Positions 2,764 to 17,595 of a stretch of 17,595 nucleotides of DNA are shown piece by piece. The stretch is from a virus: positions 1-17,595 of IMG/VR virus record IMGVR_UViG_3300045988_025712; one strand, given 5' to 3'. Position 1 is the stretch's first letter. Each line of letters opens with the position of its first letter. The position numbers were made by a program, and so were the translations under genes. The notes under the pieces are model-generated. The model saw nothing but the letters and a program-made list of their open reading frames with translations. It searched no databases and was not told the DNA's origin.

Positions 2764-2802
2764 CACCCCCCGCCGTTTCCATCCTTGCGGCGGGGGGTGT
2801 TT
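2764..2802 (+). terminator. Strong GC hairpin: perfect 12-bp stem CACCCCCCGCCG/CGGCGGGGGGTG, 12-nt loop, followed by TTT
   Basis: I paired it by hand: 2764-2775 with 2788-2799. The U-tract is short (3 nt), so it may be a leaky terminator or attenuator between the early genes and the TP/polymerase genes. Confidence 0.6.
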
Positions 2803-2823
2803 CATACTTACAGGGGAGATACC

Positions 2824-3768
2824 GTGGCAAAACGCAACAATAACCGGCGAACCAATGTCTTGAAACGTAATGCCGCTATCAGGTCGGCGCAGGTCCGCGG
2901 GGAGCGGGCGGTTAGGGATTACAGTACTGGACGACTTCCCAAGCGAATCACTGAAACGTTTTTGGGAAATCTTAGTGCTCGGCAACTTGAACAGGTCGCA
3001 CGCCGCATCGGGCAGGAGTTCGGAGAGCGACAGCAGGCGTTGAGGGTGCGGGATGACGAGCTGTATCAGGTTGTTCCGGATTTCCATGTTTCGAAACTTG
3101 ACCGTGAGATGGCTGCACGTTCACTGATTTCCGATGCGGAAATTGCCGCAGCCCCGCCGAAACGTCGGAAAACATTGCGGCAGCAACAGCGCCGTCGAGT
3201 TGAGGCACGACGGAAAATCGAGCGTGCTCAACAATTCGAAGCCTTGAGTATGGCTCGCTATACCGTAGGTGAAGTACGTGAAATGGAACGTGCCGGTGAA
3301 TCTCCGTTTGACGTGTTGGGCACTCATACGGTCGGCGGTTCGGCACGTGACGAACTTGTGCGAAGCCGTGCGAATGTGTTTGGATCGGATCGTGGAATAA
3401 GCCGTGCACGCGTGATGATGCGAGAGGGGAGCCGTGGGCAACTTGAGCGAGAGATGCTTGAATATGCCGGACTTATAGAACGTGCGCCGTTACGTGCGGG
3501 AACTGGGAGGATTTCCGAAGGCGAGGGTGTTTCGGATTTTGGTAAGGTTGAGCAGCAACTTGAAGCGTTCGACTCTGGCGTCGCCCAAAGATTCGCCGCT
3601 TTGTCGAGCCGACAAAAACGATGGCTGGTAAACAACACGAATTTCAGTCTCGTAGTACGCGAAGCGGTATGGTATAATGATAAGGCGCATAAATGGGAAA
3701 CTAAATCGGATGCGGGGGATGTGGAGACACGAATCGATGAATGGATGACCAGTACGGCAAGACACTAA
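2824..3768 (+). CDS. Candidate terminal protein (protein primer), 314 aa, Arg/Lys-rich N-terminal third
   Basis: GTG 2824 is in frame with track ORF 2785-3768, 5 nt after AGGGGAG. The track start lies inside the hairpin. The gene is immediately upstream of the protein-primed polymerase, as in phi29 (gene 3 then gene 2). I recognised no sequence motif, so the assignment rests on position and charge. Confidence 0.55.
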   Translation: MAKRNNNRRTNVLKRNAAIRSAQVRGERAVRDYSTGRLPKRITETFLGNLSARQLEQVARRIGQEFGERQQALRVRDDELYQVVPDFHVSKLDREMAARSLISDAEIAAAPPKRRKTLRQQQRRRVEARRKIERAQQFEALSMARYTVGEVREMERAGESPFDVLGTHTVGGSARDELVRSRANVFGSDRGISRARVMMREGSRGQLEREMLEYAGLIERAPLRAGTGRISEGEGVSDFGKVEQQLEAFDSGVAQRFAALSSRQKRWLVNNTNFSLVVREAVWYNDKAHKWETKSDAGDVETRIDEWMTSTARH

Positions 3769-3783
3769 AAAAAGGATGGAATC

Positions 3784-5244
3784 ATGAGAGAGCGTCGGAC
3801 GGCGGTAACAGACGGCGCAACATTATTGACGAACGACGGCATGGAGCCATTGACGACGAACGCCGTCATTCGACTGACCATGCTCGACCATCATACGCGC
3901 GTATGGTGCGCACATGGATGGCAGGACATCAAGCCCATAGCCGCAGAACTGTTGAAACGGCTGCCATTGCAATCGAATCCGGTAAAGGATGGAGTCTGGG
4001 GTACGTTTAACATTCGCGGCCATTTCTACGGTTTTCGCGTGCGCATGGGCGGCGTCACCGTGGATTTTCTGGATGTGCGCAACATCACACGCGACGACGG
4101 ACTGAATGTCTCACGCGAAACGTTCGGCGGTGCGGACGACTTGGAAACCACATGGAATATCGCGCAAGAATGCGACGCACTGAATCTCAGGGGCACGACC
4201 ATAGCGTCCATGGCGATGTCCGACTACGTCGACGGAGATTACGCAGGATTCAAACATCATTTCCCGCCATTGGACAAAGCGGAATATCGTCGGATGCGCC
4301 CCGCATACTATGGGGCGATAGTGTATAGCAGGCCGGGTGAATATCGGGATTGTAAGAGTTGGGATGTGAATAGCCTCTATCCGAGTATCATGCGCGATTC
4401 TGCTATGCCGGTAGGCTCTCCCGTCTGGTATGAGAGGGAATATCGTCATGATGACGATTATCCGCTGCATATCGATGTCATCTCGTTCGATGCGCGGCTG
4501 AAAACGGGAAAGACGGCGACACTCACCAACATCCTGCCTGTATGGGGATACGAGGGCGAACGTATGGATAGTACGCTGGGTGTCGTCACCATGCCCGTGA
4601 CCGACGTGGATTGGCGAACCTTGACGGAAAACTATGACGTCCATGTGTGGGATCATATCGGCGGCTGGAAGTTCCGTAAATCGCATGGACTCTACTATGA
4701 GTATGTGGATAAATGGTTTCGCGTGAAGCAAACCGAAACCGGCGAGCGTCGGCAAATGGCGAAACTATTGCTGAACTCGTTGGTGGGAAAATTCGGGGCC
4801 TCGCTTTACCGACCTATGCTGCACCCGAAACCTTCCGGCGATGGCGGCGTGGATTTTACCGTGGACAAACCTGAGTCGGCCAACTCGCTCGCATGGCTAC
4901 CGACCGCCGCCTATGTTAACGCCTACGGGAGGCGGATACTGTCCCGCGCGATGAATGCGAACGCCGACCGCGTGCTCTACGCCGATACGGATGGCATGAT
5001 ATTGGAGGGGTTGGATGCGCCCGCAGGCATCGAGACGGACGACAGGAAACTAGGCATGTGGAAAAACGACCACACTTATGGAAAACTTCGCATTCTCGGC
5101 AATCGCAAATACTGCGGCGTGGAAACGGACGGTGGCACGGTGATGCGGTTGAGCGGCGTGCATCGGGCAGCCCCCATACCTTACGACGACTTCCTGCCGA
5201 GGTCACGCCATGTCAATGATGACGGCTGTTTTTTTATGTTATAA
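3784..5244 (+). CDS. Protein-primed family-B DNA polymerase, phi29 type, 486 aa
   Basis: The protein carries motif A DVNSLYPS and the YPLHI block. It has motif B KLLLNSLVGKFG, motif C YADTDG and the KxY motif RKY. A TPR2-like insertion sits between motifs B and C. Colinearity with phi29 p2 is clear from TIASMAMSDY onward. The SD is AAGGATGG. Confidence 0.95.
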   Translation: MRERRTAVTDGATLLTNDGMEPLTTNAVIRLTMLDHHTRVWCAHGWQDIKPIAAELLKRLPLQSNPVKDGVWGTFNIRGHFYGFRVRMGGVTVDFLDVRNITRDDGLNVSRETFGGADDLETTWNIAQECDALNLRGTTIASMAMSDYVDGDYAGFKHHFPPLDKAEYRRMRPAYYGAIVYSRPGEYRDCKSWDVNSLYPSIMRDSAMPVGSPVWYEREYRHDDDYPLHIDVISFDARLKTGKTATLTNILPVWGYEGERMDSTLGVVTMPVTDVDWRTLTENYDVHVWDHIGGWKFRKSHGLYYEYVDKWFRVKQTETGERRQMAKLLLNSLVGKFGASLYRPMLHPKPSGDGGVDFTVDKPESANSLAWLPTAAYVNAYGRRILSRAMNANADRVLYADTDGMILEGLDAPAGIETDDRKLGMWKNDHTYGKLRILGNRKYCGVETDGGTVMRLSGVHRAAPIPYDDFLPRSRHVNDDGCFFML

Positions 5245-5245
5245 T
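5237..5245 (+). promoter_or_regulatory. Perfect extended -10 TGTTATAAT overlapping the polymerase stop codon
   Basis: TG at 5237-5238 and TATAAT at 5240-5245. There is no convincing -35. GGTAG follows at 5250-5254. Confidence 0.45.
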
Positions 5246-5251
5246 GACTGG

Positions 5252-5415
5252 TAGCGGGATGTGCGTCCCAAGCTGATTCAATGGCCCGACCGGTAGGCGA
5301 TCGGTAAGGCGATTCGGTCGGATGTAGACGTGCGTGGCCAGCGCCCATTGACGGCGAGGGAACCCGCACAGCCTAGCAATTCCGGCACGGCAGCGTGATT
5401 GCTGCCGTGCCATTT
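5252..5415 (+). ncRNA. Candidate structured RNA (~165 nt): a packaging-RNA-like ncRNA or a long structured leader of the late operon
   Basis: The intergenic stretch is 187 nt with no credible ORF. Several nested helices can be drawn: AGCGGGA/TCCC..GCT, TGGCC/GGCCA (5282-5286 with 5336-5340) and CGACCG/CGGTCG (5287-5292 with 5315-5320). It ends in a perfect 11-bp hairpin, 5384-5394 with 5401-5411, followed by ATTT. The start and end coordinates are inferred, not observed. Confidence 0.3.
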
Positions 5416-5431
5416 ACCTTAGGGGGTAATT

Positions 5432-5776
5432 ATGGACGACACTGAAAACGACGATAAGCCGGACACCACGCCCGACACTGAACCGGACGCGACCGCCGAC
5501 GACGATACGCCGAACCCGGAATCTGGAACGCGGGACGACGCCGAGCCTGAAGATGCGGGCGACGACAAGAACGCCGACATGGCCGACCGGTTGAGCGCAT
5601 TGGAGGCGACTGTGGCGGAATTGTCCAAAACCATCGAAGCAATGCGCGACGCCGCCGCCGACGATGTGCTGAACGATGGCCTCGACGACGATGCGACGCC
5701 GGAATCGACTGAAATGACCGACGACGACTATAACGGCACCTACGGCACTTTCGACGACTTGTACGAAGACCGATGA
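5432..5776 (+). CDS. Scaffolding protein candidate, 114 aa, extremely acidic with a helical central segment
   Basis: It lies immediately upstream of the major capsid gene, as phi29 gp7 does. The SD is AGGGGG. Its D/E/T-rich composition is typical of small scaffolds. Confidence 0.6.
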   Translation: MDDTENDDKPDTTPDTEPDATADDDTPNPESGTRDDAEPEDAGDDKNADMADRLSALEATVAELSKTIEAMRDAAADDVLNDGLDDDATPESTEMTDDDYNGTYGTFDDLYEDR

Positions 5777-5795: not shown

Positions 5796-7529
5796 ATGGG
5801 AACCACTCCAGTGGTGACACCGAAGCAGCAGCTCCGCCCGCTCACCGAATTCAATAACGCTCAGATCTTGAACATGATTCGCAACGAGGCGTCACCGGAG
5901 TACCAGCGGCGAATGCCATCGGCTACTCAGATGAACATGGACAGGCAGATGGCTACGCTCATGTCGTCCACCCAGCTGAAGAACGAATTTTACTCGGCGC
6001 TGGTGAACCGCATTGGCGGCACCTACGTGAACACGTGGCGTTGGAACAATCCTCTCAGCGTTTTCCAGCGAGCATCGCAGGCGTATGGCGATACGTGGCA
6101 GGAAATCGCCGTCGGAATGCCGCTCGCGCAGGTCTATGACCCTAATGCGGAATATCTCGGCGCGGATAACTTCCGCAAGTGGAAGATCGACGTGGATTCG
6201 CTCTATCACCGTCTGGATTTCGCCCACTGGTATCCTGCGACCACGGATGACAGGACGCTTCAGCGTGCCTTCACTTCCGAAAACGGTCTGGCCTCACTCA
6301 CTTCGCAGATCCTCACATCCTGCTACAATGCGGCTGAAGTCGACCTTTTCGAAGCCTTATGCCACCAGTTCACCGAATATGCGAAGCTCGGCGGATATTG
6401 GCGCGTCCACATGAACAAAGACCTGAACAACATGGGCAGTTCGGAAACCGACGCCCGCGACATGTTGCGTCAGATCCGCGCGTGGGCCGACACGCTTAAA
6501 TTCGTGTCCACCAAGTACAACGCCCGACACATGCCGACCTTCGCTCGTCCGGACGAACTCGTACTGTTCTGTTCGCCGGAAGTCAAGTCGGCGCTTGACG
6601 TGCAAGGTCTCGCCACGGTGTTCCAGCGTACGGACGCCGAGCCGACTATCGACCGGATCATCGTCATTCCGCAGGACAGGTTCGGCATGGATGGTGTGCA
6701 GGCCATCCTGACGACCGATAAATTCCTGATTGATATTCCGGTCATCAATGAGATGACCCAGCAGATCAATCCGGTCAACATCAATTCGGTGAACCATTAT
6801 CTGCATGTCCAGCACATCATTTCAGTGTCCGGTTTCGCTCCGGCCGTGTTGTTCTGGACTGGAGCGGGTTCTACCGCCAACGTGGTGGCTCCCGCTGGCA
6901 CTCGGGCTCAGACGCCGGCATTCCAGCTTAAGCTTGGCATGTATGGCGGTGGCTCGCAAACCCCGGCCGATGTGGCGCGTGGCGGCGCGGTGCAGGTCGT
7001 TGCCGACACGACCGTCGCCAATGATGGTAACGCCACGTTCCGTTCCAACGCGGTCGAGTATCGCATTGGCGACACCGCCAAGCCGAAAAGCGATTACACT
7101 TACATTTCGCCTACCGGCGTGCTGGTGGTCGGCCTTGACGAACCGAACGTCACCATCCCGGTTACCGCAACCGCCTTGTATGCGGACCCGGCGACGCCGG
7201 AGGTGCCGGGCACCGTGTCCGCGGCTTTGGACGTGCCGGTGGTCGGAGACGGTGTTATCGGATTCAATCCGTCGATCATCGCGTCGATTGCCGTGACCGT
7301 TCCGACCGTGGCCGTAGGACATACGGCGCAGGCTACCGCCGTGGCGACCATGATTGACGGACGTACCGCCGACGTGACCGCACAGGCCGCATGGACGTCC
7401 GGCACTCCGGCGAGCGCCACCGTGTCCGAGTCGGGCGTGGTGACTGGCGTCGCGGCGGGCAGTTCCGACATTGCCGCCACGTTGTTCGGCGTGTCTGGAA
7501 AGAAGGGCGTGACCGTGACCAAAGAGTGA
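5796..7529 (+). CDS. Major capsid protein, phi29 gp8-like, with a C-terminal Big_2-type Ig-like domain
   Basis: The N-terminal blocks N.IRN...Y...P.AT and N.F..LVNRIG....NNPL..F match remembered phi29 gp8. The last ~78 aa (AQATAVATMIDGRTADVTAQAAWTSG...VTGVAAGSSDIAATL) have the Big_2 pattern. A second Ig-like segment probably precedes it. Confidence 0.9.
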   Translation: MGTTPVVTPKQQLRPLTEFNNAQILNMIRNEASPEYQRRMPSATQMNMDRQMATLMSSTQLKNEFYSALVNRIGGTYVNTWRWNNPLSVFQRASQAYGDTWQEIAVGMPLAQVYDPNAEYLGADNFRKWKIDVDSLYHRLDFAHWYPATTDDRTLQRAFTSENGLASLTSQILTSCYNAAEVDLFEALCHQFTEYAKLGGYWRVHMNKDLNNMGSSETDARDMLRQIRAWADTLKFVSTKYNARHMPTFARPDELVLFCSPEVKSALDVQGLATVFQRTDAEPTIDRIIVIPQDRFGMDGVQAILTTDKFLIDIPVINEMTQQINPVNINSVNHYLHVQHIISVSGFAPAVLFWTGAGSTANVVAPAGTRAQTPAFQLKLGMYGGGSQTPADVARGGAVQVVADTTVANDGNATFRSNAVEYRIGDTAKPKSDYTYISPTGVLVVGLDEPNVTIPVTATALYADPATPEVPGTVSAALDVPVVGDGVIGFNPSIIASIAVTVPTVAVGHTAQATAVATMIDGRTADVTAQAAWTSGTPASATVSESGVVTGVAAGSSDIAATLFGVSGKKGVTVTKE

Positions 7530-7535
7530 TATGAT
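7527..7535 (+). promoter_or_regulatory. Extended -10-like motif TGATATGAT overlapping the capsid stop codon
   Basis: The 14-mer GAGTGATATGATGG (7524-7537) differs at one position from GAGTGATATAATGG (9934-9947). GGGTAG follows at 7540-7545. Confidence 0.35.
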
Positions 7536-7580
7536 GGGAGGGTAGCCGGTTGGCTACTCTCTCTCACGGTGTGATGCAGG

Positions 7581-7623
7581 ACAAGGCCCGGAGCGCACTT
7601 CACGTGATTGCTCCGGGTCTTGT
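7581..7623 (+). terminator. Long hairpin (14-bp stem with one G-U, 15-nt loop) after the capsid gene; no U-tract
   Basis: I paired it by hand: 7581-7594 with 7610-7623. A second 9-bp hairpin lies at 7538-7559. It could be a partial terminator or an RNA stability or processing element downstream of the abundantly needed capsid message. Confidence 0.4.
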
Positions 7624-7635
7624 TCATACCGGAGG

Positions 7636-9939
7636 ATGATGATGATTGACGACGTTAACCCTTACGTGGAATCCAATTTTTCGTGGGCGGAATGGACACC
7701 CAACACCACATTGAAACTCTGCCGCGTCCCGTGGGACGCCTCGTATAGGGATGTAGTGCGGTTTGTTTCACGTGAGACGCAACAGGAATGGTTTAGCAAG
7801 GTGGATGGCGTGGAATGCAGGCCTGCCACTATGCATATTTTCGGCGCTCCCGTGCGGATCGACATGCCATTCAGCCAAGCGTCGAACTACAATTACCTCG
7901 TTGCGGTCAACGATTACCCCGAACTGGAATCGCCACGCGCATGGTATTACTTCATCGAATCTGTGGAATACGTCAACGCGCACACTACACAGCTCACGCT
8001 TATGTTGGACGTATGGCAGAGTTTTCAACATGACGTGACGTTTGGGAGCTGTTACGTGATGCGCGGGCATATCGGAGTCGCCAACGAACGCCAGTGGGAT
8101 GATTACGGGCGTACCACGCTTGCGCTCCCGGAGGGACTGGATACGGGCGCGGAAACCGTCATTGCCTCACAATCATATACGGCGCTGATGTCCAGCAAGC
8201 CCGCACGACCCGGCTTTAACTCACCGACCTTGGATTATGGTGTCATTGTCGTTGCCACGACCGACCTTGTGGCGTCGGGCGGCAGTGTTGAAAAACCGTC
8301 GCTGAAAACCGCGCAGGGATCACAATTCGAGAATCAATCCAATGGTGCGGGAATTTATTATTTTGATACCGCCGACGATTTTACGCGCGTCATGCAGGCG
8401 GGCAGTTCGTTCCCGTGGGTTACTCAGGGTATTACGGCGATTTACGCGATCCCGAAAATCAGCGCTGACTATCTAGCCGACGCGGGGCGTGAGGTAACGC
8501 AATTCTTTGGCGTCAGCGCGGTGGGTGTGATTGAGGGCCACGTATACACGTTCCTATGGGAGGCTAAGAGCGATAACCGGTATGATGATATTGTTTCCGT
8601 TAAGAATTTCCGCGATAATTTCAATATCCCGAGCCGGTACCGCAATCTGAAAAAATTGCGATGCTACCCGTATAGTGTTGTGGAATGCTCGTGTCTGAAT
8701 GGATCGAACGTCATCTATAGGCCCGAGGACATCCAGTCTCATGATTTGGTAATCCGTGAGACATGGAACTACGCGCCGCCATCCCCTCGTCTGAACTTCT
8801 ACCCAGTGGACTATAATGCTGGCGGCGCGGCCACGGTTTCCTCCCCGTCCGGGAATGGCGCCGGCCTGCCGATCGATGGCGGGGAAATGCTGAATGTCAG
8901 TTTCGGGATTACGAACTTTCCCCAGTTCATGGTGGTGAACAACGGGGCTTCGCTTGCTATGGCGAACGGCGCGTACGGTCGCGCTTACGCGGAGCAGTCG
9001 GCTGGGTGGGCGCAGCAAAAAGCGACCATGAGTGCCGCCAACACACTGTCTCAAGCCGGTACGGCAATTCGTACCCAGCAAGAGATGACCCAACTCGGTA
9101 TCACCAACCGTAATGCATTGAACGCCATTACGGCCAACTCGTTGAATCAGTCGTTGGCTATCGGACAGGCGAACACCAACGCCATGACCGACCTGAATAT
9201 ATCCCAGAACAACGCGCAGTCGGCGTTGGGGTTGATATCCAATGCCGGAACTTCGCTGATGAAGGGGGACGTGGCCGGACTGGTCGGCGGCACTGTCGGC
9301 GGCGTGGTGCAGAACGGCATTGTCAATACGGGGTTGCGCGCCGGTCGTGATATAGCCAACAACACGGCTGCGGCCAACACGGCCAACAGTGTGGCGACCA
9401 ATGCGGCGCAAACCTCGCAGGCGAACGCCTACGCGCAACGTGCCCAGCAGATTCAAGGCACGTCCAGCGCTTTGATGGCCGGGCAGAACTACCGGTTGGC
9501 TACGCGCGTTGCCGAGGGTGATTATGAAAACGCGATTGCGGGGATCAATGCGCAAGTGCAGCAGATGCAGATGACGCCGCCGACCACAAGCGGCTCGGCG
9601 GGCGGCGATTCGTTCAACCTCGCCAATGGTATCATGGGCGTGTTGGTACGTTTCCGCACGTGCGCCCCCAGCGCGTTGCGTTCGGTGGGCGAGTTCATGT
9701 TACGGTTCGGGTATTTTGTCCAGCGGTTCATTACCCCACCTGCGAGCCTGCAATGTATGGAGAAATTCACCTACTGGCAGATGCAGGAATGTTATGTTCG
9801 GGGCTCGTTGCCCGAGCAGGCGCGATTGACGATCAAGGGCATGTTTGAACGTGGCGTGACCGTGTGGGATAAGCCTGAGTATATTGGTGTGACCGATTGG
9901 GCGGATAACGAGCCGCTGCCGGGCATCGGCTACGAGTGA
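7636..9939 (+). CDS. Tail knob / distal tube protein, phi29 gp9-like, 767 aa, with a ~220-aa low-complexity insert
   Basis: The N-terminus LKLCRVPWDASYRDVVRFVSRETQQEWFSK parallels phi29 gp9 [30 protein letters not shown]. The position after the capsid gene matches. GGAGG is at 7631-7635, so the true start may be ATG 7639 or 7642. Confidence 0.8.
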   Translation: MMMIDDVNPYVESNFSWAEWTPNTTLKLCRVPWDASYRDVVRFVSRETQQEWFSKVDGVECRPATMHIFGAPVRIDMPFSQASNYNYLVAVNDYPELESPRAWYYFIESVEYVNAHTTQLTLMLDVWQSFQHDVTFGSCYVMRGHIGVANERQWDDYGRTTLALPEGLDTGAETVIASQSYTALMSSKPARPGFNSPTLDYGVIVVATTDLVASGGSVEKPSLKTAQGSQFENQSNGAGIYYFDTADDFTRVMQAGSSFPWVTQGITAIYAIPKISADYLADAGREVTQFFGVSAVGVIEGHVYTFLWEAKSDNRYDDIVSVKNFRDNFNIPSRYRNLKKLRCYPYSVVECSCLNGSNVIYRPEDIQSHDLVIRETWNYAPPSPRLNFYPVDYNAGGAATVSSPSGNGAGLPIDGGEMLNVSFGITNFPQFMVVNNGASLAMANGAYGRAYAEQSAGWAQQKATMSAANTLSQAGTAIRTQQEMTQLGITNRNALNAITANSLNQSLAIGQANTNAMTDLNISQNNAQSALGLISNAGTSLMKGDVAGLVGGTVGGVVQNGIVNTGLRAGRDIANNTAAANTANSVATNAAQTSQANAYAQRAQQIQGTSSALMAGQNYRLATRVAEGDYENAIAGINAQVQQMQMTPPTTSGSAGGDSFNLANGIMGVLVRFRTCAPSALRSVGEFMLRFGYFVQRFITPPASLQCMEKFTYWQMQECYVRGSLPEQARLTIKGMFERGVTVWDKPEYIGVTDWADNEPLPGIGYE

Positions 9940-9945
9940 TATAAT
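9937..9945 (+). promoter_or_regulatory. Perfect extended -10 TGATATAAT overlapping the tail-knob stop codon and positioned for a leaderless portal mRNA
   Basis: TATAAT is at 9940-9945 and the portal ATG is at 9952, a 6-nt gap. No SD lies in between. Confidence 0.4.
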
Positions 9946-9951
9946 GGCGAT

Positions 9952-10902
9952 ATGAGTAGGTCTAAGAGGAATCGGGTTGGCGGCGCGTTGCATCCGCGAG
10001 GGAATTACGCGAAGGCACGTGCCGCCAGTCTCGACTGGATGTATTATCGTCTGTTGGAAGAATTGGCGTTGAACCGGTTCAGTTGGCGCGGATTGCCGCC
10101 CACTGTGGACGAACGATGGCTCGAAATGTGTCTGTGCGAATACGGGTGCGCCCTATTCTTCGAGGACAAGCGTATTGGCAGGTTCCTCGTGACACAGGCC
10201 GGTTATCAGGGGCGGTTGAACGTCTATAATAATCCAACACGTTTTGAGCCGGTAGGCGTCAACTATCATTACAAACAGCTCAAGGCGGGCCGTGAGTGCA
10301 TTCCTGTTTGGGACAATCGTATGCGCATGAGTTTCAAGGATGTTCTATGGCAGTATGCGAGACGCCTCGCGGATATCGATAAGGCGTATGATGTGAATTT
10401 GGAGAGCCTGAAACTGCCGACCATTATCACCGCCGACCCGCGTACCAAGTTGACGGTGCAGAACATGTTGCAACAGCGGCAGGACGGTCAGGACTATATC
10501 ATCGGATACGACTCATTGGACCCCGGTAGCATGTTTCAGCCGTGGCCCAACACTACGCCCTACTTGTTGGATAAGTTCATCCAGCAGAAAGCGCAGGTGA
10601 CCAACGAGGTGCTGGGATATTTGGGTATCCAGTCGAGTGGTACGGAGAAGAAGGAGAGGCTGATCTCCGATGAAGTGGCGCAAGCCAATGAGAAGGTGGA
10701 CGTATTCCGTTTGGGTTTCCTTAAGGCACGGCAGGCGGCGGCGACTGAGATCAATCGACTGTGGCCGCAACTTGATGTCTGGGTGGAGTATGCCGACTCG
10801 CAATCGAGCGGTGTGCCCAACGCGCTGGATTCGAGCGCGTTGGGCACGACTGATATTGATATGCCCGCTTCATACGACGCGGGTATCGGAGGTGTGCTAT
10901 AA
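9952..10902 (+). CDS. Portal / upper collar connector protein, phi29 gp10-like, 316 aa
   Basis: The basic N-terminus (SRSKRNR) and L..L...F.W.GLPPT match. The block LGIQSSGTEKKERLISDEV matches phi29 gp10 LGIKNANLEKKERMVTDEV. The size and position also match. Confidence 0.9.
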   Translation: MSRSKRNRVGGALHPRGNYAKARAASLDWMYYRLLEELALNRFSWRGLPPTVDERWLEMCLCEYGCALFFEDKRIGRFLVTQAGYQGRLNVYNNPTRFEPVGVNYHYKQLKAGRECIPVWDNRMRMSFKDVLWQYARRLADIDKAYDVNLESLKLPTIITADPRTKLTVQNMLQQRQDGQDYIIGYDSLDPGSMFQPWPNTTPYLLDKFIQQKAQVTNEVLGYLGIQSSGTEKKERLISDEVAQANEKVDVFRLGFLKARQAAATEINRLWPQLDVWVEYADSQSSGVPNALDSSALGTTDIDMPASYDAGIGGVL

Positions 10903-11693
10903 TGCAGGATTTTAGCGCCTACGCTATGATGACACCCGGCGAGTGCACCGAAACCCTCGGTAATCTCGTTGCCATGGGATACGAGACGGACGATAAACTA
11001 CATCTTAGCGCTGACTATTATCCGATTTACGACGAAAGCCATCGCGCGGAGTTGAATGAGAAAATCGTCCGCCATTACGCGCTGCGGGAGATCGGGCAGG
11101 AAACCGCGCAACAATTCGTCTTCTATCTGGGGATGACGATGGCGGAAATCATGCCCTATTTCAATGAACGCTATCGGACGCTGGACATGGCATATAATCC
11201 ATTGGATTCCATGGATATGACGACGGACAGCGAGAGCGGCAGTGAATCCCAGTCCTCGGGTAAAGCGTCAAGTACGCAGGATTCGAACAGCTCCAGCACC
11301 AGCAAGTCGGATAATTCCAGCACCACCACATCGAAGAGCTTCGATAGTGACGTGCCGCAAACCGGCATACAAGGCGACTTTGCTCGATACGCGAGCCACG
11401 CGAACGAGTCACAGGCGGACAGCGCGGGCACGGCGTCCAGTTCGCAGGATTCAACCAGTCACACCACCGCGCAAAGCGCCACCGACTACCAGCATGATTC
11501 GAGCAATTCCAAGGGTAAGAGTCATGTGACAGGGCGTAGCCAGAGCGCTATGAGCCTGATTCAGGAATACCGGCAGGCGATTATCAATGTGGACATGGAA
11601 ATCGTGCGGAGTCTTGAGCCGTGTTTCATGCAGGTGTGGGGTTCGTATGATACCATTTTTAGCGACTGCCATAACTATGGAGAATGGGAGTGA
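10902..11693 (+). CDS. Lower collar protein candidate (phi29 gp11 position), 263 aa, with a Ser/Thr-rich central stretch
   Basis: There is a TAATG start-stop overlap with the portal gene, and GGAGG lies upstream. Size and synteny support the call. I recognised no diagnostic motif. Confidence 0.55.
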   Translation: MQDFSAYAMMTPGECTETLGNLVAMGYETDDKLHLSADYYPIYDESHRAELNEKIVRHYALREIGQETAQQFVFYLGMTMAEIMPYFNERYRTLDMAYNPLDSMDMTTDSESGSESQSSGKASSTQDSNSSSTSKSDNSSTTTSKSFDSDVPQTGIQGDFARYASHANESQADSAGTASSSQDSTSHTTAQSATDYQHDSSNSKGKSHVTGRSQSAMSLIQEYRQAIINVDMEIVRSLEPCFMQVWGSYDTIFSDCHNYGEWE

Positions 11694-11698
11694 ATATT

Positions 11699-13291
11699 AT
11701 GAGCGTCAATAATCCGACAATTCCGGGACTTATCCGGCCTATTGTGCCCACGTCGGTGCCGTTCGTGTATCGTGACGGCTTGACCATGCTTCAGTTGATT
11801 GAGTGCATCAAGCATGATCTGGACATGCTGCAAGAGTATGTGAACGGCGTCATGGATGACGTTAACAAGGCATTGGAGGATCAGACAACACAGAATCAGG
11901 ATACGTTGGACAAGGCGCAGCAGGCTGCGCAGGACGCCGCGGACGCCATCCGGCAAGCACAGGACGCGCTAAAGCAGTATCAGCAGATCGTAGCCAACGT
12001 CAATACCGCACTGAACACCGCCAACGTGGCTATTGACCGTCTGGGGGCGTTGGGCGTGACCGACTCCGAGGCGGCGACGAAACTTAAAAACACTATCGAG
12101 CGGACCGCAAACGATCTGACTGCACTTGAGGGGCGCGTTACCACCGCTGAGGGGCGCGTTACCACCGCTGAGGGCACGTTGTCCGACGTGCAATCGTTGG
12201 CGCAGACCAACAAATCGGATATTGCCGGAATTGAAGCGAATCTTACCGCATTACATGCCAATAGCGTCAGCGATGCAACCGGTCTGTACCATAAGATCGA
12301 CAAGAATTCCACCGGCATAGAACAGAACAGAGCGGCAATAGTGGAGGTAAATAACAATTTTAGTAATTTTATTCCTTTGCGAAGAACATATGAAAATATC
12401 GTAATTGTAGGAGATTCTATAACATACGGTACCGGAGCGTCATCAACGGCTAAGGCGTGGGGCAATCTTTTCAAGGATTATATCGGTGCGGAGTCGGTGC
12501 AGAATCTCGCGCAAAACAATGCGGGTTTCGTCAACGCTCCCACGTTCCTGTCGCAGCTTCAGGGCGCGTCCAATAAAGAGGCGGTTACGCACGTGATTAT
12601 CGCGGGCGGAGCCAACGACAAGCGAACCACCGACGCTCAGGTGACTGCCGCCGTGATCGATACGCTCAAGTACGCTCTGAAGAATTTCCCTAACGCCACT
12701 ATTCATGTGGCGCCGGTCGTGCTGGGCCTTCAGGGTATTTTCCGATACGACCGCGGCAATAGCGACGTGTGGAGTACCCTTAATGCGATTGAGGCCGGGA
12801 TCGCGCAGGTTTCCAACGTCCATGAAATCCGGTACGCATGGGAATGGCTCAATGGCCGTCAGGATTGGGCATCCATCTTCAACGGGACGCTCGACCTGAT
12901 TCACCCCAATGACAGCGGACAGCAGCAGCTTTTGAGGTTGATGGCTGAATCGCTGTTTACCGGAAACAGTATCCACAATAATTGGTCGGTCGGAGTGTCG
13001 GGCGCGGACAATCACGGGAACATCTCGCATGCGTCATCAACTTGCTCGAACGGTGTGTATGATTTTTCCGCACAGGTCACCGTGGTCAACAACCATCAGG
13101 CATATCAGGGCATTGTGAAAACTTGTTATGGACTGAGCATGGCCGATAATTTCCATGTCAACGCCTCGTATACCGGCGGGAACGTCTATGCGTCCACGGA
13201 TTTGGCGAATATGGGACTCATCTCATGTACGACCAACGTTCCCAATGATACTGAAATCTACATGACGGCACACCATTATATCGGAGCCTGA
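11699..13291 (+). CDS. Tail appendage / receptor-binding protein: N-terminal anchor, coiled-coil stalk, SGNH (GDSL) hydrolase domain and a C-terminal beta-rich domain
   Basis: It occupies the phi29 gp12 position. The SGNH blocks are IVIVGDSITYGTG (block I), IIAGGAND (block III) and LDLIHPND (block V, DxxH). Heptad-like A/Q/N/T-rich repeats lie upstream. ATG 11699 sits 8 nt after GGGAG; track ORF 11684 is the alternative start. Confidence 0.75.
   Translation: MSVNNPTIPGLIRPIVPTSVPFVYRDGLTMLQLIECIKHDLDMLQEYVNGVMDDVNKALEDQTTQNQDTLDKAQQAAQDAADAIRQAQDALKQYQQIVANVNTALNTANVAIDRLGALGVTDSEAATKLKNTIERTANDLTALEGRVTTAEGRVTTAEGTLSDVQSLAQTNKSDIAGIEANLTALHANSVSDATGLYHKIDKNSTGIEQNRAAIVEVNNNFSNFIPLRRTYENIVIVGDSITYGTGASSTAKAWGNLFKDYIGAESVQNLAQNNAGFVNAPTFLSQLQGASNKEAVTHVIIAGGANDKRTTDAQVTAAVIDTLKYALKNFPNATIHVAPVVLGLQGIFRYDRGNSDVWSTLNAIEAGIAQVSNVHEIRYAWEWLNGRQDWASIFNGTLDLIHPNDSGQQQLLRLMAESLFTGNSIHNNWSVGVSGADNHGNISHASSTCSNGVYDFSAQVTVVNNHQAYQGIVKTCYGLSMADNFHVNASYTGGNVYASTDLANMGLISCTTNVPNDTEIYMTAHHYIGA
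12128..12169 (+). repeat. Perfect tandem duplication of a 21-bp unit (GAGGGGCGCGTTACCACCGCT x2, plus a degenerate third start) encoding EGRVTTA EGRVTTA EG
   Basis: Direct reading shows 12128-12148 is identical to 12149-12169. One unit equals one coiled-coil heptad. Confidence 0.95.
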
Positions 13292-14594: not shown

Positions 14595-14617
14595 TATTGT
14601 ATGGTAGGGTAGGTATT

Positions 14618-15715
14618 ATGGAGAAGTTGTTGGGCGAGGATGATTACTATGATTATGGGCGCGTGTTATCCTATCACGCGCCTTGGATGTTCGTAATCGG
14701 CGCGCGCGGCCTCGGCAAGACGTATGGCGCTAAAAAACTGGTCATCGGAGACTGGATTAAAAAACGCTGGCAATTCATTTATCTACGCCGTACAGCGGAG
14801 GAACAGAAGAATAAGGGCACGTGGTTCGCGGACATCGCGGAACAATACCCGGATCTAGAGTTTAGAGTGTCCGGCAATCAGGCCGAGTGCCATTGGTTGG
14901 ACGATAGGGACGCCACCACAGACAAGCACGGTAAAACCCGCCCGACATGGCATATCATGGGGTACTTCATCGCCCTCAGTCAGGCTGGACAGGTGAAATC
15001 AGTCGCCTACCCAAGGGTGCGAACCGTAATTTTTGATGAGATTTTCCCCGATAATATGCGCTACCTTGGTGGCGAGGTTACGGCGCTTGAGGAATTCTAT
15101 AATACCATTGATAGGTGGAACGATCGCGTTAGGGTCATCATGTGCAGCAACGCTGTCACGTTGGCTAACCCGTATTTTAGCGCGTTTAATATCAATCTGA
15201 AACCGCAGCTTGACAATCACACGCAATACCAACGGTATTGCGACGGGTTTATTATGATAGAATTGGCTGATTACGGCGGGTTCAGCGCTAAGGTGGCCAC
15301 GTCAAGATTCGGCACGTTTTTACGGAAATATGATGAGAATTATGCGAACTATGCAATCAATAATGATTTTCGGGATCGCGCCAATACTCTCATTAGTGAT
15401 TTCAATAACGCCGGTTATGCGTTCACATTAAGAACCACGGAATACGGTATTTTCAATGTATATCAGCAATTGAGCGATACCGATGAAGTATTGTATGTCA
15501 TTACCAAAAAACAGCCTAAAATTACCCGTGATTTTACATTCGATTATCGACTGGTCGATAATGATTGCATCATGCTCAAACGTTCGGATGATATGACACA
15601 GAAAATATTAAACGCCTACCGCGTCGGACGTTTACGTTTTGAAACCCCTCAGATTAAAGCGGAATTTAGCATGATTCTTGGCGGCTTATTACAACAATCA
15701 GGCATAAGAAAGTGA
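14618..15715 (+). CDS. DNA encapsidation (packaging) ATPase, phi29 gp16-like, 365 aa
   Basis: Walker A is VIGARGLGKTYGAKK and Walker B is RTVIFDEIF. Size and context fit. ATG 14618 is preferred over the TTG at 14597 used by the track. Confidence 0.9.
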   Translation: MEKLLGEDDYYDYGRVLSYHAPWMFVIGARGLGKTYGAKKLVIGDWIKKRWQFIYLRRTAEEQKNKGTWFADIAEQYPDLEFRVSGNQAECHWLDDRDATTDKHGKTRPTWHIMGYFIALSQAGQVKSVAYPRVRTVIFDEIFPDNMRYLGGEVTALEEFYNTIDRWNDRVRVIMCSNAVTLANPYFSAFNINLKPQLDNHTQYQRYCDGFIMIELADYGGFSAKVATSRFGTFLRKYDENYANYAINNDFRDRANTLISDFNNAGYAFTLRTTEYGIFNVYQQLSDTDEVLYVITKKQPKITRDFTFDYRLVDNDCIMLKRSDDMTQKILNAYRVGRLRFETPQIKAEFSMILGGLLQQSGIRK

Positions 15716-16090: not shown

Positions 16091-17129
16091 AGCAATTGCG
16101 TACAGCATGATCGCGGCAATCGCCGCACTACTATTGGCGTTCGTACCATACGCGAGCGCAGCGGACATGATTGACGTATCCAGTTGGCAAACCGGCATCA
16201 ACGTCACCACATCCGGCGCACAGATCGTGGTAGCCAAAGCGACCGAAGGCGTCAACTACACTAACCCCGATTGCGACCGCGTCGTACAGGACGCCTTGAA
16301 CGCAGGTCAGGGCGTCGGCGTCTACCACTTCGCACACACCGAAAACGACGCACGACGCGAAGCCCAACACTTCATCGACAATACGCGCGGATACATCGGA
16401 AAAAAAATAGTACCAATACTAGACTGGGAACCATCCGCCCCATGGAACACCAGTTGGGCGCTCACATGGCTCCAAACCGTAAAAGCAGCATGGGACACCA
16501 AGCCAATCATCTACATGAACCAATCCACGGAAAACGCTTACGACTGGTCGACGGTCGTCGCCGGAGATTATGGACTATGGATCGCCGCATACACGCTCGG
16601 ATACACACCAATATACGGATTCAATCCGCCATCGGCCCAGCCCACCCTCCACCATTGGCCATTCGCCGTCGCATGGCAGTACACGTCAACCGGCTATGTC
16701 GGCGACTGGAACGGCGCACTCGACCTAAGCGTAGTATACGGCGACCTCAACACATGGAACGCATACGCGAACAGCAGACAAGCAGCACCCACGCCCGCCC
16801 CGAAACCAACACCACAACCCAACAAGCCAGACACCACATGCAACACCAATTGCGTCATCATCCAATCAGGCCAATACGTTTCGATGTTCTGGTCCGACTG
16901 GTGGAACGTAACCGTTCCCAGCGGCAACCCATCCATCGTATACCCCGGAGACAAGATCTGCCACAACAACGGCAGCAACACCGCAACAACGTCACGCACA
17001 TACGTGGTGCAATCAGGCGACACACTCAGCGGCATCGCCTCTCGGCTCGGAGTCAACATGTACAATATCACAGGATATAGTTCAGGAAACATGAACCTCA
17101 TCTACCCCGGCGAAACCCTATACTACTAA
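16074..17129 (+). CDS. Endolysin: Sec-type signal peptide, GH25 muramidase, Pro/Thr linker, two LysM-like repeats
   Basis: ATG 16074 lies within track ORF 16056-17129, with AAAGG upstream. The signal peptide is MKNRIKAIAYSMIAAIAALLLAFVPYASA|AD. The GH25 blocks are DVSSWQ, VAKATEG.NY.NP, GVYHFA and LDWE. The C-terminal YVVQSGDTLSGIASRLGV...IYPGETL is a canonical LysM, preceded by a degenerate copy. Confidence 0.9.
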   Translation: MKNRIKAIAYSMIAAIAALLLAFVPYASAADMIDVSSWQTGINVTTSGAQIVVAKATEGVNYTNPDCDRVVQDALNAGQGVGVYHFAHTENDARREAQHFIDNTRGYIGKKIVPILDWEPSAPWNTSWALTWLQTVKAAWDTKPIIYMNQSTENAYDWSTVVAGDYGLWIAAYTLGYTPIYGFNPPSAQPTLHHWPFAVAWQYTSTGYVGDWNGALDLSVVYGDLNTWNAYANSRQAAPTPAPKPTPQPNKPDTTCNTNCVIIQSGQYVSMFWSDWWNVTVPSGNPSIVYPGDKICHNNGSNTATTSRTYVVQSGDTLSGIASRLGVNMYNITGYSSGNMNLIYPGETLYY

Positions 17130-17144
17130 CATCCCCACATAAAA

Positions 17145-17171
17145 GCCCTGCACATTGCAGGGCTTTTTTTT
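17145..17171. terminator. Rho-independent terminator, probably bidirectional: GCCCTGCA-CAT-TGCAGGGC flanked by AAAA (5') and T8 (3')
   Basis: The stem pairs 17145-17152 with 17156-17163, and the T-run is 17164-17171. It sits between the convergent endolysin gene and the - strand ORF. Confidence 0.85.
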
Positions 17172-17190
17172 CATATGCCAACCACCGACA

Positions 17191-17433
17191 TCAATCAAAA
17201 CAAAACACCCACGACAAGACCCCCCACAAGACAATCCCCCGAACAATCCTAACACAGTCATAATCGCAACCCAACAAACACCCGACAACCACAGCAAACA
17301 CCGACCCGAACAAGACAACACCACCACCAACCAAACCATCATCGAAGACAACCCCAACACACACGCCCTCGACAACAACCCTACAAGAAACGTCAAACCC
17401 AAACCAAACAACATAAACATCAATGCCAATCAT
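17191..17433 (-). CDS. Right-end inward-facing hypothetical protein, 80 aa, Val/Gly/Cys-rich; apparent diverged paralog of the left-end gene 164-520
   Basis: This is the internal ATG (17433) of track ORF 17191-17592. GGAGGGGG (17447-17440 on the - strand) places GGAGG 9 nt upstream. The stop lies just before the shared terminator. The ATG lies 43 nt inside the ITR boundary, against 44 nt on the left. The sequence is strongly compositionally biased, so coding is not certain. Confidence 0.45.
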   Translation of the reverse strand: MIGIDVYVVWFGFDVSCRVVVEGVCVGVVFDDGLVGGGVVLFGSVFAVVVGCLLGCDYDCVRIVRGIVLWGVLSWVFCFD

Positions 17434-17476
17434 TTCCATCCCCCTCCATTGAAAACGGATAACTACAGTACAACAA

Positions 17477-17595
17477 CACACCACAAAAAACAACACACCC
17501 ACCAACCACAAAAAAACCAAGAACAAAACAAAACAAAGAAACAAGCACACAAAGAACAGAAACAAAAAACACAGACAACAACAACAATACAAAAA
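17477..17595. repeat. Right inverted terminal repeat, 119 bp
   Basis: It is the reverse complement of 1-119 with no mismatch by hand comparison. Confidence 0.97.

Follow-up and report, generated by a model that had tools for sequence, protein, structure and literature searches.

The gap between the DNA polymerase gene and the putative scaffold gene of a phi29-like phage genome (IMG/VR record IMGVR_UViG_3300045988_025712; all 17,595 bp of it are called the window below) probably encodes a divergent prohead, or packaging, RNA (pRNA) that would correspond to the one of phi29 and be shared by a large group of phi29-like phages, the closest isolates of which infect Bifidobacterium. The predicted RNA would span about 165 nucleotides (nt) of the + strand (5252-5416, with an uncertain 3' end) and would be composed of a domain I, a linker and a domain II. 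The original prediction for this site, made from the letters of the window, had proposed a discrete noncoding RNA of about this size, possibly a pRNA of the phi29 type; the match of the fold and a covarying pair of loops support this proposal and, on comparative grounds, make a packaging function plausible. The analysis covered the fold of the RNA, its conservation, the complementarity of two loops and the covariation of this complementarity, the synteny of the locus and the presence of the partner proteins.

Fold of the predicted RNA between the polymerase and scaffold genes

The stop codon of the polymerase gene is located at 5242-5244 and the next open reading frame (ORF) starts with the ATG at 5432, leaving a gap (5245-5431) of the 187 nt counted originally. 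Instead of the single 10-codon mini-ORF described at first, the + strand of the gap contains two ATG-initiated mini-ORFs of eight (5281-5307) and five codons (5259-5276), and no reading frame of the gap stays open across the other lineages. The G+C content of the predicted RNA is 62% (41% for the phi29 pRNA). Gene spacing elsewhere in the window is not confined to the 0-40 nt stated in the original prediction, as gaps of 106 nt (7530-7635) and 83 nt (2702-2784) also exist.

A perfect extended -10 promoter, TGTTATAAT, is found on the + strand at 5237-5245, where it overlaps the polymerase stop codon. TG-N-TATAAT is nearly invariant across 78 close relatives, while its flanks vary, and TGnTAT(A/G)(A/G)T is seen at a fixed distance from the first helix (P1) in all divergent lineages. 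From this spacing, transcription is predicted to start at about 5252-5254, inside a conserved GUAG. The motif had also been ranked as the best promoter match of the genome, which is not supported; TGNTATAAT is not unique but occurs four times in the window (0.47 expected), each time on the + strand and at a gene junction: before the polymerase gene (3670-3678), at the gap itself (5237-5245), at the tail-knob stop before the connector gene (9937-9945), and at the connector stop and lower-collar start (10895-10903). This suggests that several internal promoters are present.

The + strand of the gap folds at -86.9 kcal/mol (z = -3.65), with none of 200 shuffles as good, in agreement with the structured region originally reported; the - strand also folds better than its shuffles (z = -3.09). 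RNAalifold on the relatives and minimum-energy folding of the single sequence give one and the same structure. Domain I (5254-5377; this and all elements below are on the + strand) is a three-way junction with two arms, closed by a long helix of the 5' and 3' ends. In this helix, P1, the counterpart of helix A of the phi29 pRNA, the 5' strand (5254-5258, 5260-5269, 5272-5275 and 5278-5284) pairs with the 3' strand (5345-5377), interrupted by internal loops and a 3-nt bulge ACC (5362-5364). A single junction nucleotide, C5285, leads into P2 (5286-5321), the counterpart of helices C and E, with an outer 8-bp stem (5286-5293/5314-5321) and an inner 4-bp stem AUCG/CGAU (5300-5303/5310-5313). Between the two stems, the 5' side forms the internal loop UAGGCG (5294-5299, with GGC at 5296-5298), the counterpart of the CE or right-hand loop, while the 3' strand is almost bulge-free. 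The inner stem is capped by the hexaloop GUAAGG (5304-5309), the counterpart of the E loop. Junction J2/3, AUGUAGACGU (5322-5331), connects P2 to P3 (5332-5344), which corresponds to helix D and has a 4-bp stem (5332-5335/5341-5344) and the loop GGCCA (5336-5340), whose GCC at 5337-5339 is invariant. The direct repeat AGGCGAT, listed earlier as a feature of the region, does occur at 5295-5301 and 5307-5313, but the first copy lies in the P2 internal loop and varies in relatives (AGGCAAT, AGGCAAG), and the second extends across the P2 hexaloop and the inner stem; the repeat is a by-product of the fold and not a separate unit.

A 6-nt linker (5378-5383) joins domain I to P4 (5384-5411), the counterpart of domain II, an 11-bp stem with the hexaloop GUGAUU (5395-5400) and the sequence GGCACGGCAGC-GTGATT-GCTGCCGTGCC, then ATTTACCTT. 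The perfect 11-bp hairpin noted at first is present as described, but is not supported as a clean terminator. A terminator scan flags P4 as terminator-like only in the window (tail AUUUACCUU), and P4 taken alone does not combine a hairpin with a conserved U run, as a Rho-independent terminator or attenuator would: the run is weak here and missing in most relatives, where the tails read ACUUACUUU, CUUAAAC, ACCUACAC or ACUAACCG. The scaffold Shine-Dalgarno sequence AGGGGG (5421-5426) begins 10 nt 3' of P4 and is followed by the ATG at 5432.

Conservation, covariation and loop complementarity

Relatives were collected by capsid-protein scans, which gave 80 IMG/VR contigs, and further clades were taken from other collections; eleven further lineages were gathered via capsid homologues at 41-69% identity, together with the isolates BadAztec1 and BadAargau2. 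Scans of IMG/VR that were aimed at clades D and P0081 returned clade A contigs only. About 100 relatives conserve the gap region more than the flanking genes. Among 79 close relatives, mean column identity is 96% in domain I, with 63% of the columns invariant, compared with 87% and 36% for the polymerase 3' end and 89% and 22% for the scaffold 5' end.

A covariance model of the window-type RNA (R1) finds a single match per genome, at the gap site, in 97 loci, and 94 distinct sequences were aligned to it. In this alignment 94.6% of the cells are paired, against 28-41% when the partners are slid, and 27 of the 57 pairs are changed on both sides, against 3-7 when slid. Covariation-supported helices in relatives had been named beforehand as a check of the predicted RNA, and this check came out in its favor. 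Between clade A, to which the window belongs, and clade B, P1 shows compensatory changes at 10 pairs. Double-sided changes affect six of the eight pairs of the outer and two of the four pairs of the inner P2 stem, as well as six stem pairs of P4, and in P3 all cells are paired, with three of four pairs changed on both sides (GCGU/RCGC versus GGUA/UACC) around a loop that retains GCCA. Many of these stem changes pass through G-U, which argues for an RNA on the + strand, since the other strand would carry C-A mismatches.

Clade B, whose capsid proteins are 76-82% identical, has almost no gap sequence in common with the window (21-32 bits with nhmmer), but its gap folds independently into the window-type shape, with different stems and the same loops. 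Independent folding to this structure is also seen in L250, L252 and others. The P2 hexaloop GUAAGG is near-invariant in clades A and B, although the stem beneath it shifts from AUCG/CGAU to CGCG/CGCG, and reads UUGAAU, UUGAUU, UUGACU, UUAAGU or UUAGGU in other relatives. Clade A shares the J2/3 motif GAUGUA(G/A)A with clade B and with L259. The ACC bulge of P1 is conserved in clade A and reads ACC or AAC in clade D; clade B has UCUC. In lineages A, B, D, E, G, J, K and L149-L154 the P4 loop (GUGAUU, GUUAUU or AUUAUU) is retained although the stems that carry it are unrelated; the arms of P4 vary freely, whereas domain I is fixed and shows no linked change. The GUGAUU hexaloop hairpin recurs as P4 of L252, L255, L258, L259 and L260, and in L149, L151, L153 and L154 it does not adjoin the scaffold start but lies about 130 nt upstream of it. 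Pairing of the GUGAUU loop with the 3' end of the 16S rRNA (GAUCAC) was considered and rejected, as the GUUAUU and AUUAUU variants break it.

All eleven further lineages and both isolates have a polymerase-scaffold gap of 170-210 nt, and all contain the promoter, the long closing helix, a P2-type arm, a short P3 and a 3' hairpin; the build of P2 recurs in at least ten lineages. With default filters, R1 found nothing in 80 distant phi29-like loci. With the filters off, it recovers the gap site in lineages D, E, G and J, and its scores at this site are 53 bits for L255, 33-39 for clade D, 30 for L259, 26 for L258 and 20 for BadAargau2, so that these RNAs belong to one family. The clusters L162-L190 and L201-L221 were recognised by eye only, and the core of BadAztec1 is known from two sequences only, to which several structures fit. 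In L162-L190 the RNA module directly follows a small ORF resembling ribbon-helix-helix proteins, and the best promoter match is located downstream of the module. Such an ORF, of about 55-70 amino acids, is observed between the polymerase gene and the RNA module in L158, L162, L192, L201, L223 and their relatives. In distant phi29-like phages with the small ORF, the last hairpin preceding the scaffold gene carries a motif like an extended -10 element within its 5' arm.

The internal loop of P2 and the loop of P3 are complementary to each other. GGC is present in the P2 internal loop of 93 of the 94 distinct sequences and matches the GCC of the P3 loop. Across lineages the two loops change together: GGC/GCC in clade A, including the window, corresponds to UGGCA/UGCCA in clade B, GACUA/UAGUC in clade D, CACA/UGUG in L256, ACC/GGU in L258 and BadAztec1, and UACCA/UGGUA in L201-L221. 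L274 has GACUG/UGGUC, where both substitutions keep the pairing via G-U, and the 29 sequences of L162-L190 have ACC(R)/UGGU, with the outer P2 stem and P3 covarying as well. Loops of the same lineage pair better than swapped ones (permutation p = 0.002 for eight lineages, p = 0.005 for nine), although the loops were delineated by hand and these p-values are therefore not free of choice. The complementarity of the P2 internal loop and the P3 loop has the properties of pRNA-type loop pairing (PMC12670572).

Genome context and alternative readings

The window is a complete linear phi29-like genome with perfect inverted terminal repeats of 119 nt, and all its clear genes are on the + strand. The leftward early operon of phi29 comprises the genes for SSB (gene 5), the terminal protein (gene 3) and the polymerase (gene 2), followed by small genes, promoter A1 and the pRNA; the rightward early module of the window comprises SSB, a 327-amino-acid protein, the polymerase, the promoter and the RNA. 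The position of the RNA is syntenic with phi29 once the early module of phi29 is flipped, and its apparent novelty is due solely to the collinear arrangement of early and late modules here. Of the new genomic position claimed originally, the placement ahead of the late genes and away from the genome end stands, yet it is equivalent to that in phi29 after this inversion. The gp10-like portal and gp16-like ATPase that had been named as partners are both encoded: a gp10-type connector (9952-10902; PF05352, E = 5e-42) and a gp16-type packaging ATPase (14597-15715; PF05894, E = 8e-42), both on the + strand. The ATPase aligns to residues 6-318 of phi29 gp16, including the C-terminal domain (7JQQ, E = 3e-32), while its alignment to the asccphi28 ATPase is confined to the N-terminal domain (E = 8e-12). 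The connector starts with a basic N-terminus, MSRSKRNRVGG. It recalls the basic connector N-terminus that binds the pRNA in phi29 (PMC1636484). By analogy, the connector is the presumed binding partner of the RNA and the ATPase the presumed partner of P1.

Among the neighboring genes, all on the + strand, the family B DNA polymerase (PolB; 3784-5244) is short (486 amino acids), and the PolB profile covers residues 135-341 only. Upstream of it, the 327-amino-acid ORF (2785-3768) sits between the phi29-type SSB gene and the polymerase gene, at the position of the phi29 terminal protein, and probably encodes this protein; Pfam and PHROG searches with it gave no match. The putative scaffold protein (5432-5776), which is small and acidic, is followed by a phi29-type capsid protein with a C-terminal Big_2 Ig-like domain (5796-7529). 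Further downstream are a gp9 tail knob gene, 5' of the connector gene, a lower collar gene that starts at the connector stop, and a structural-module protein with a GDSL esterase/lipase domain (11684-13291); a CHAP lysin is also encoded. A DNA-level search found no phage record matching the window. Among isolates, BadAztec1 and BadAargau2, both phages of Bifidobacterium asteroides, have the nearest capsid proteins, at about 45% identity, and phages of Curtobacterium and Arthrobacter come next; a search of genome contigs for a host gave Ig-domain matches only.

Other sites in the window were considered as well. The genome ends, where the phi29 pRNA gene is located, were rejected as the site of a pRNA, with a CA-only and poorly conserved right end and a poorly conserved left kilobase. 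The early region at the left end is poorly conserved even in close relatives. Both ends show an extreme and mirrored base skew (GC skew +0.59 over the first 300 nt, -0.62 at 17101-17400). A bidirectional terminator-like hairpin (17141-17167) is followed by about 300 nearly G-free, CA-rich nucleotides that reach the inverted terminal repeat, and - strand ORFs are found at 17118-17429 and 17191-17592. The hairpin, these ORFs and the mirrored GT-rich left end hint at a leftward early unit at the right end, as in phi29. The 106-nt gap after the capsid gene (7530-7635) contains two strong G+C-rich hairpins (about 7532-7566 and 7579-7627) without a U tract, and close relatives also carry a strong hairpin pair after the capsid gene, partly different in sequence; these hairpins could act as an attenuator or stabilise the mRNA. 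A 10-mer, CGTGATTGCT, that is shared by P4 and the 7579-7627 hairpin was discarded, as it is not conserved in relatives (L057 has GUGAGC there) and CGTGATTG is not above chance in the window.

As a pRNA, the element would work as follows. Host RNA polymerase would start from the conserved extended -10 promoter, about 8 nt before P1, and the first ~125 nt would fold into domain I, with P1 closing the three-way junction from which P2 and P3 branch off. The GGC of the P2 internal loop would then pair with the GCC of the P3 loop, most likely on a neighboring molecule, so that an RNA ring would be formed on the connector of the prohead. P1 would point outward and dock the gp16-type ATPase, which drives the protein-primed genome into the head, and P4 would take the place of domain II. 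We infer that a discrete RNA is likely made, that its loops would pair between molecules, and that it would bind the prohead and be needed for packaging.

Several observations weigh against a pRNA. The Rfam model RF00044, which scores phi29 at 145.4 bits as a positive control, matches the window neither at the gathering threshold nor at E <= 10, and it gave no match in nine relatives, again up to E <= 10, or in a 206-nt search of the L258 gap alone. A hand-written descriptor of the pRNA core has the phi29 pRNA as its sole match in phi29 and also recovers 5286-5344 of the window; it gives 2-5 spurious matches per G+C-rich genome and was thus not used as evidence. Apart from the manual delineation of the loops, L255 and L250, with one sequence each, show no clear loop complementarity, and in clade A the pairing is only 3 bp long and invariant, so that covariation is no test there. 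Furthermore, the loops could pair within one molecule as a pseudoknot rather than between molecules. As P4 is not followed by a conserved U tract and the Shine-Dalgarno sequence is so close, the element must be, at least initially, part of the scaffold/capsid mRNA. Finally, asccphi28, whose authors report "no evidence for a pRNA," indicates that a phi29-like phage can apparently do without one (PMC7823558).

The proximity of P4 and the Shine-Dalgarno sequence, with the element directly behind the promoter, is the main argument for the foremost competing explanation, which we regard as unlikely but as the most serious one, namely that the element is a cis-acting 5' leader of the scaffold/capsid transcript. 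In that case domain I would be folded compactly, and GGC/GCC would be a pseudoknot within one molecule. The fold would bind a factor of the phage or the host or, as the HK022 put RNA does, RNA polymerase itself, and would control read-through of P4 and of the post-capsid hairpins, or translation of the scaffold gene, with P4 as attenuator or operator. A separate promoter would find no space after P4, which is terminator-like in the window; strong hairpins are also found after the capsid gene, and protein operators typically combine a conserved loop with a stem that varies freely. By contrast, the P4 stems covary without any linked change in domain I, which makes a riboswitch-type alternative pairing with P4 unlikely, and no Rfam cis-regulatory or riboswitch family matches. 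In L162-L190 the best promoter match downstream of the module would place the latter outside the late leader; this placement and the independent variation of P4 weigh against a pure leader role. A leader would also leave the element-by-element likeness to pRNA and the synteny with phi29 unexplained. Structure and conservation as such establish no more than selection on a folded + strand RNA, and this, like the missing RF00044 match, would also suit some other trans-acting small RNA, involved in replication, host takeover or timing, that resembles pRNA by convergence. Indeed, three-way junctions with loop-loop contacts are also known from unrelated RNAs such as purine riboswitches. This explanation is rather improbable, as the coincidences add up: the order and several sizes of the elements, the covarying loop pair, the E-like and D-like loops of some lineages, the position after the polymerase gene and the gp10 and gp16 homologues. 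Least probable by far is an element that acts as DNA, with an incidental RNA fold, such as a cluster of regulator sites or a hairpin signal on the strand displaced in protein-primed replication. Possible binding sites are CGGT and GGCGAT, which are repeated in the window, and its palindromes CGATCG and TGGCCA, and the - strand also folds better than shuffles, but these repeats and palindromes are not conserved. What is conserved is the pairing, including many G-U pairs that are C-A mismatches on the other strand, and the promoter at its fixed upstream distance.

The favored reading, a pRNA counterpart, can be reconciled with synthesis as part of the late transcript in a more speculative form, which we put forward only tentatively. 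The pRNA may be ancestral in the phi29-type motor and may be made in actinobacterial phages as the 5' end of the scaffold/capsid mRNA, so that one transcript would give both head proteins and motor RNA, with the GUGAUU hairpin marking a cut or recognition site.

Comparison with known systems

Promoter-proximal antitermination leaders such as the HK022 put RNA are likewise structured RNAs that follow a promoter directly and open a long operon with strong internal hairpins. However, put RNAs consist of two simple stem-loops of about 70 nt without closing helix or loop-loop pairing, and in some relatives of the window the module is apparently located upstream of the late promoter. Junctions of the purine-riboswitch type also have a closing helix, a three-way junction with arms joined by their loops, and then a hairpin and a ribosome-binding site, but in the window-type RNA the contact is made via an internal loop instead of two terminal loops, and nothing points to an expression platform that switches, as the hairpin downstream varies without regard to domain I. 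Like the window phage, the Lactococcus phage asccphi28 is a protein-primed podophage of small size whose portal and ATPase are short; it is reported to lack a pRNA, whereas the window genome contains a pRNA-like RNA.

In the literature, pRNA is regarded as a property of phi29 and its Bacillus relatives alone (PMC11476376; PMC12670572; PMC7823558). A review from 2024 describes it as a feature inherent in this group (PMC11476376), a structure-based search from 2025 added pRNAs of Bacillus phages only (PMC12670572), and asccphi28 was chosen as a model because its genome has no evident pRNA (PMC7823558). The RNA described here suggests that such a motor RNA may also occur outside Bacillus phages; if this is true, a pRNA counterpart in the phages of another bacterial phylum would bear on whether the RNA is ancestral to the motor. 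It would also provide more than ten divergent lineages in which the covariation of the ring-forming loops can be analysed, the GUGAUU hairpin as a new conserved element, G+C-rich natural three-way-junction scaffolds for RNA nanotechnology, and a testable system, with homologous RNA in the cultured phages BadAztec1 and BadAargau2.

The comparison with the phi29 pRNA was based on the Rfam consensus as printed for phi29 and on a phi29 fold from the same folding tool. In the phi29 pRNA, helix A is followed by a 1-nt junction, helix C and a 9-nt CE loop on the 5' side; helix E (4 bp) comes next, is capped by the 6-nt E loop UUGAGU and returns along a continuous 3' strand. UUU then leads to helix D, whose 5-nt loop is UGGUU, and a linker precedes domain II. 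The window-type RNA has the same order, namely P1, a 1-nt junction, P2 with a 6-8-nt loop on the 5' side and a near-continuous 3' strand, P3, and then a hairpin. Domain I, with its paired 5' and 3' ends and its three-way junction, is about 120 nt long in both, and has the fold of phi29-type pRNA; the A/C junction (1 nt), helix E (4 bp), the E loop (6 nt) and the D loop (5 nt) are of identical size. The phi29 pRNA has its own sigma-A-type promoter and ends in the domain II hairpin; for the window-type RNA, a promoter of this type is predicted and a hairpin like domain II is conserved. In pRNAs, the CE and D loops pair between molecules over 3-4 nt with a G/C core and covary (PMC5066667; PMC12670572), and the bulge loop and 5-nt loop of the window-type RNA are likewise complementary over 3-5 bp with a G/C core and covary among lineages. 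In some lineages even the loop sequences are similar to those of phi29, with GAAACC versus GAUUAAACC in the CE-like loop, UUGACU or UUGAAU versus UUGAGU in the E-like loop, and an identical UGGUU in the D-like loop. The two RNAs also differ: between the arms, the window-type RNA has a junction of 8-10 conserved nucleotides rather than UUU, the counterpart of helix D has 4 bp rather than 6 bp, and the linker to domain II, 6 nt without a clear terminator, compares with 13 nt in phi29. The 3-nt bulge of the long helix is ACC on the 3' strand in the window RNA and CCA, which contacts the ATPase, on the opposite strand in phi29; given the opposite strands, the two are only possibly analogous. The window RNA is placed ahead of the late genes, with the polymerase gene on one side and the scaffold gene on the other, while the phi29 pRNA is encoded at the genome end, and the hosts are Actinobacteria for the window-type phages and Bacillus for the phi29 family. 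Known pRNAs share only about 12% sequence identity with each other (PMC5066667). The window RNA is set apart from them by the absence of detectable sequence similarity, by the host phylum, by lying at the head of the late genes and by an extra conserved hairpin loop, but its architecture is the same as that of pRNA, and, judged by sequence comparison, so most likely is its role.

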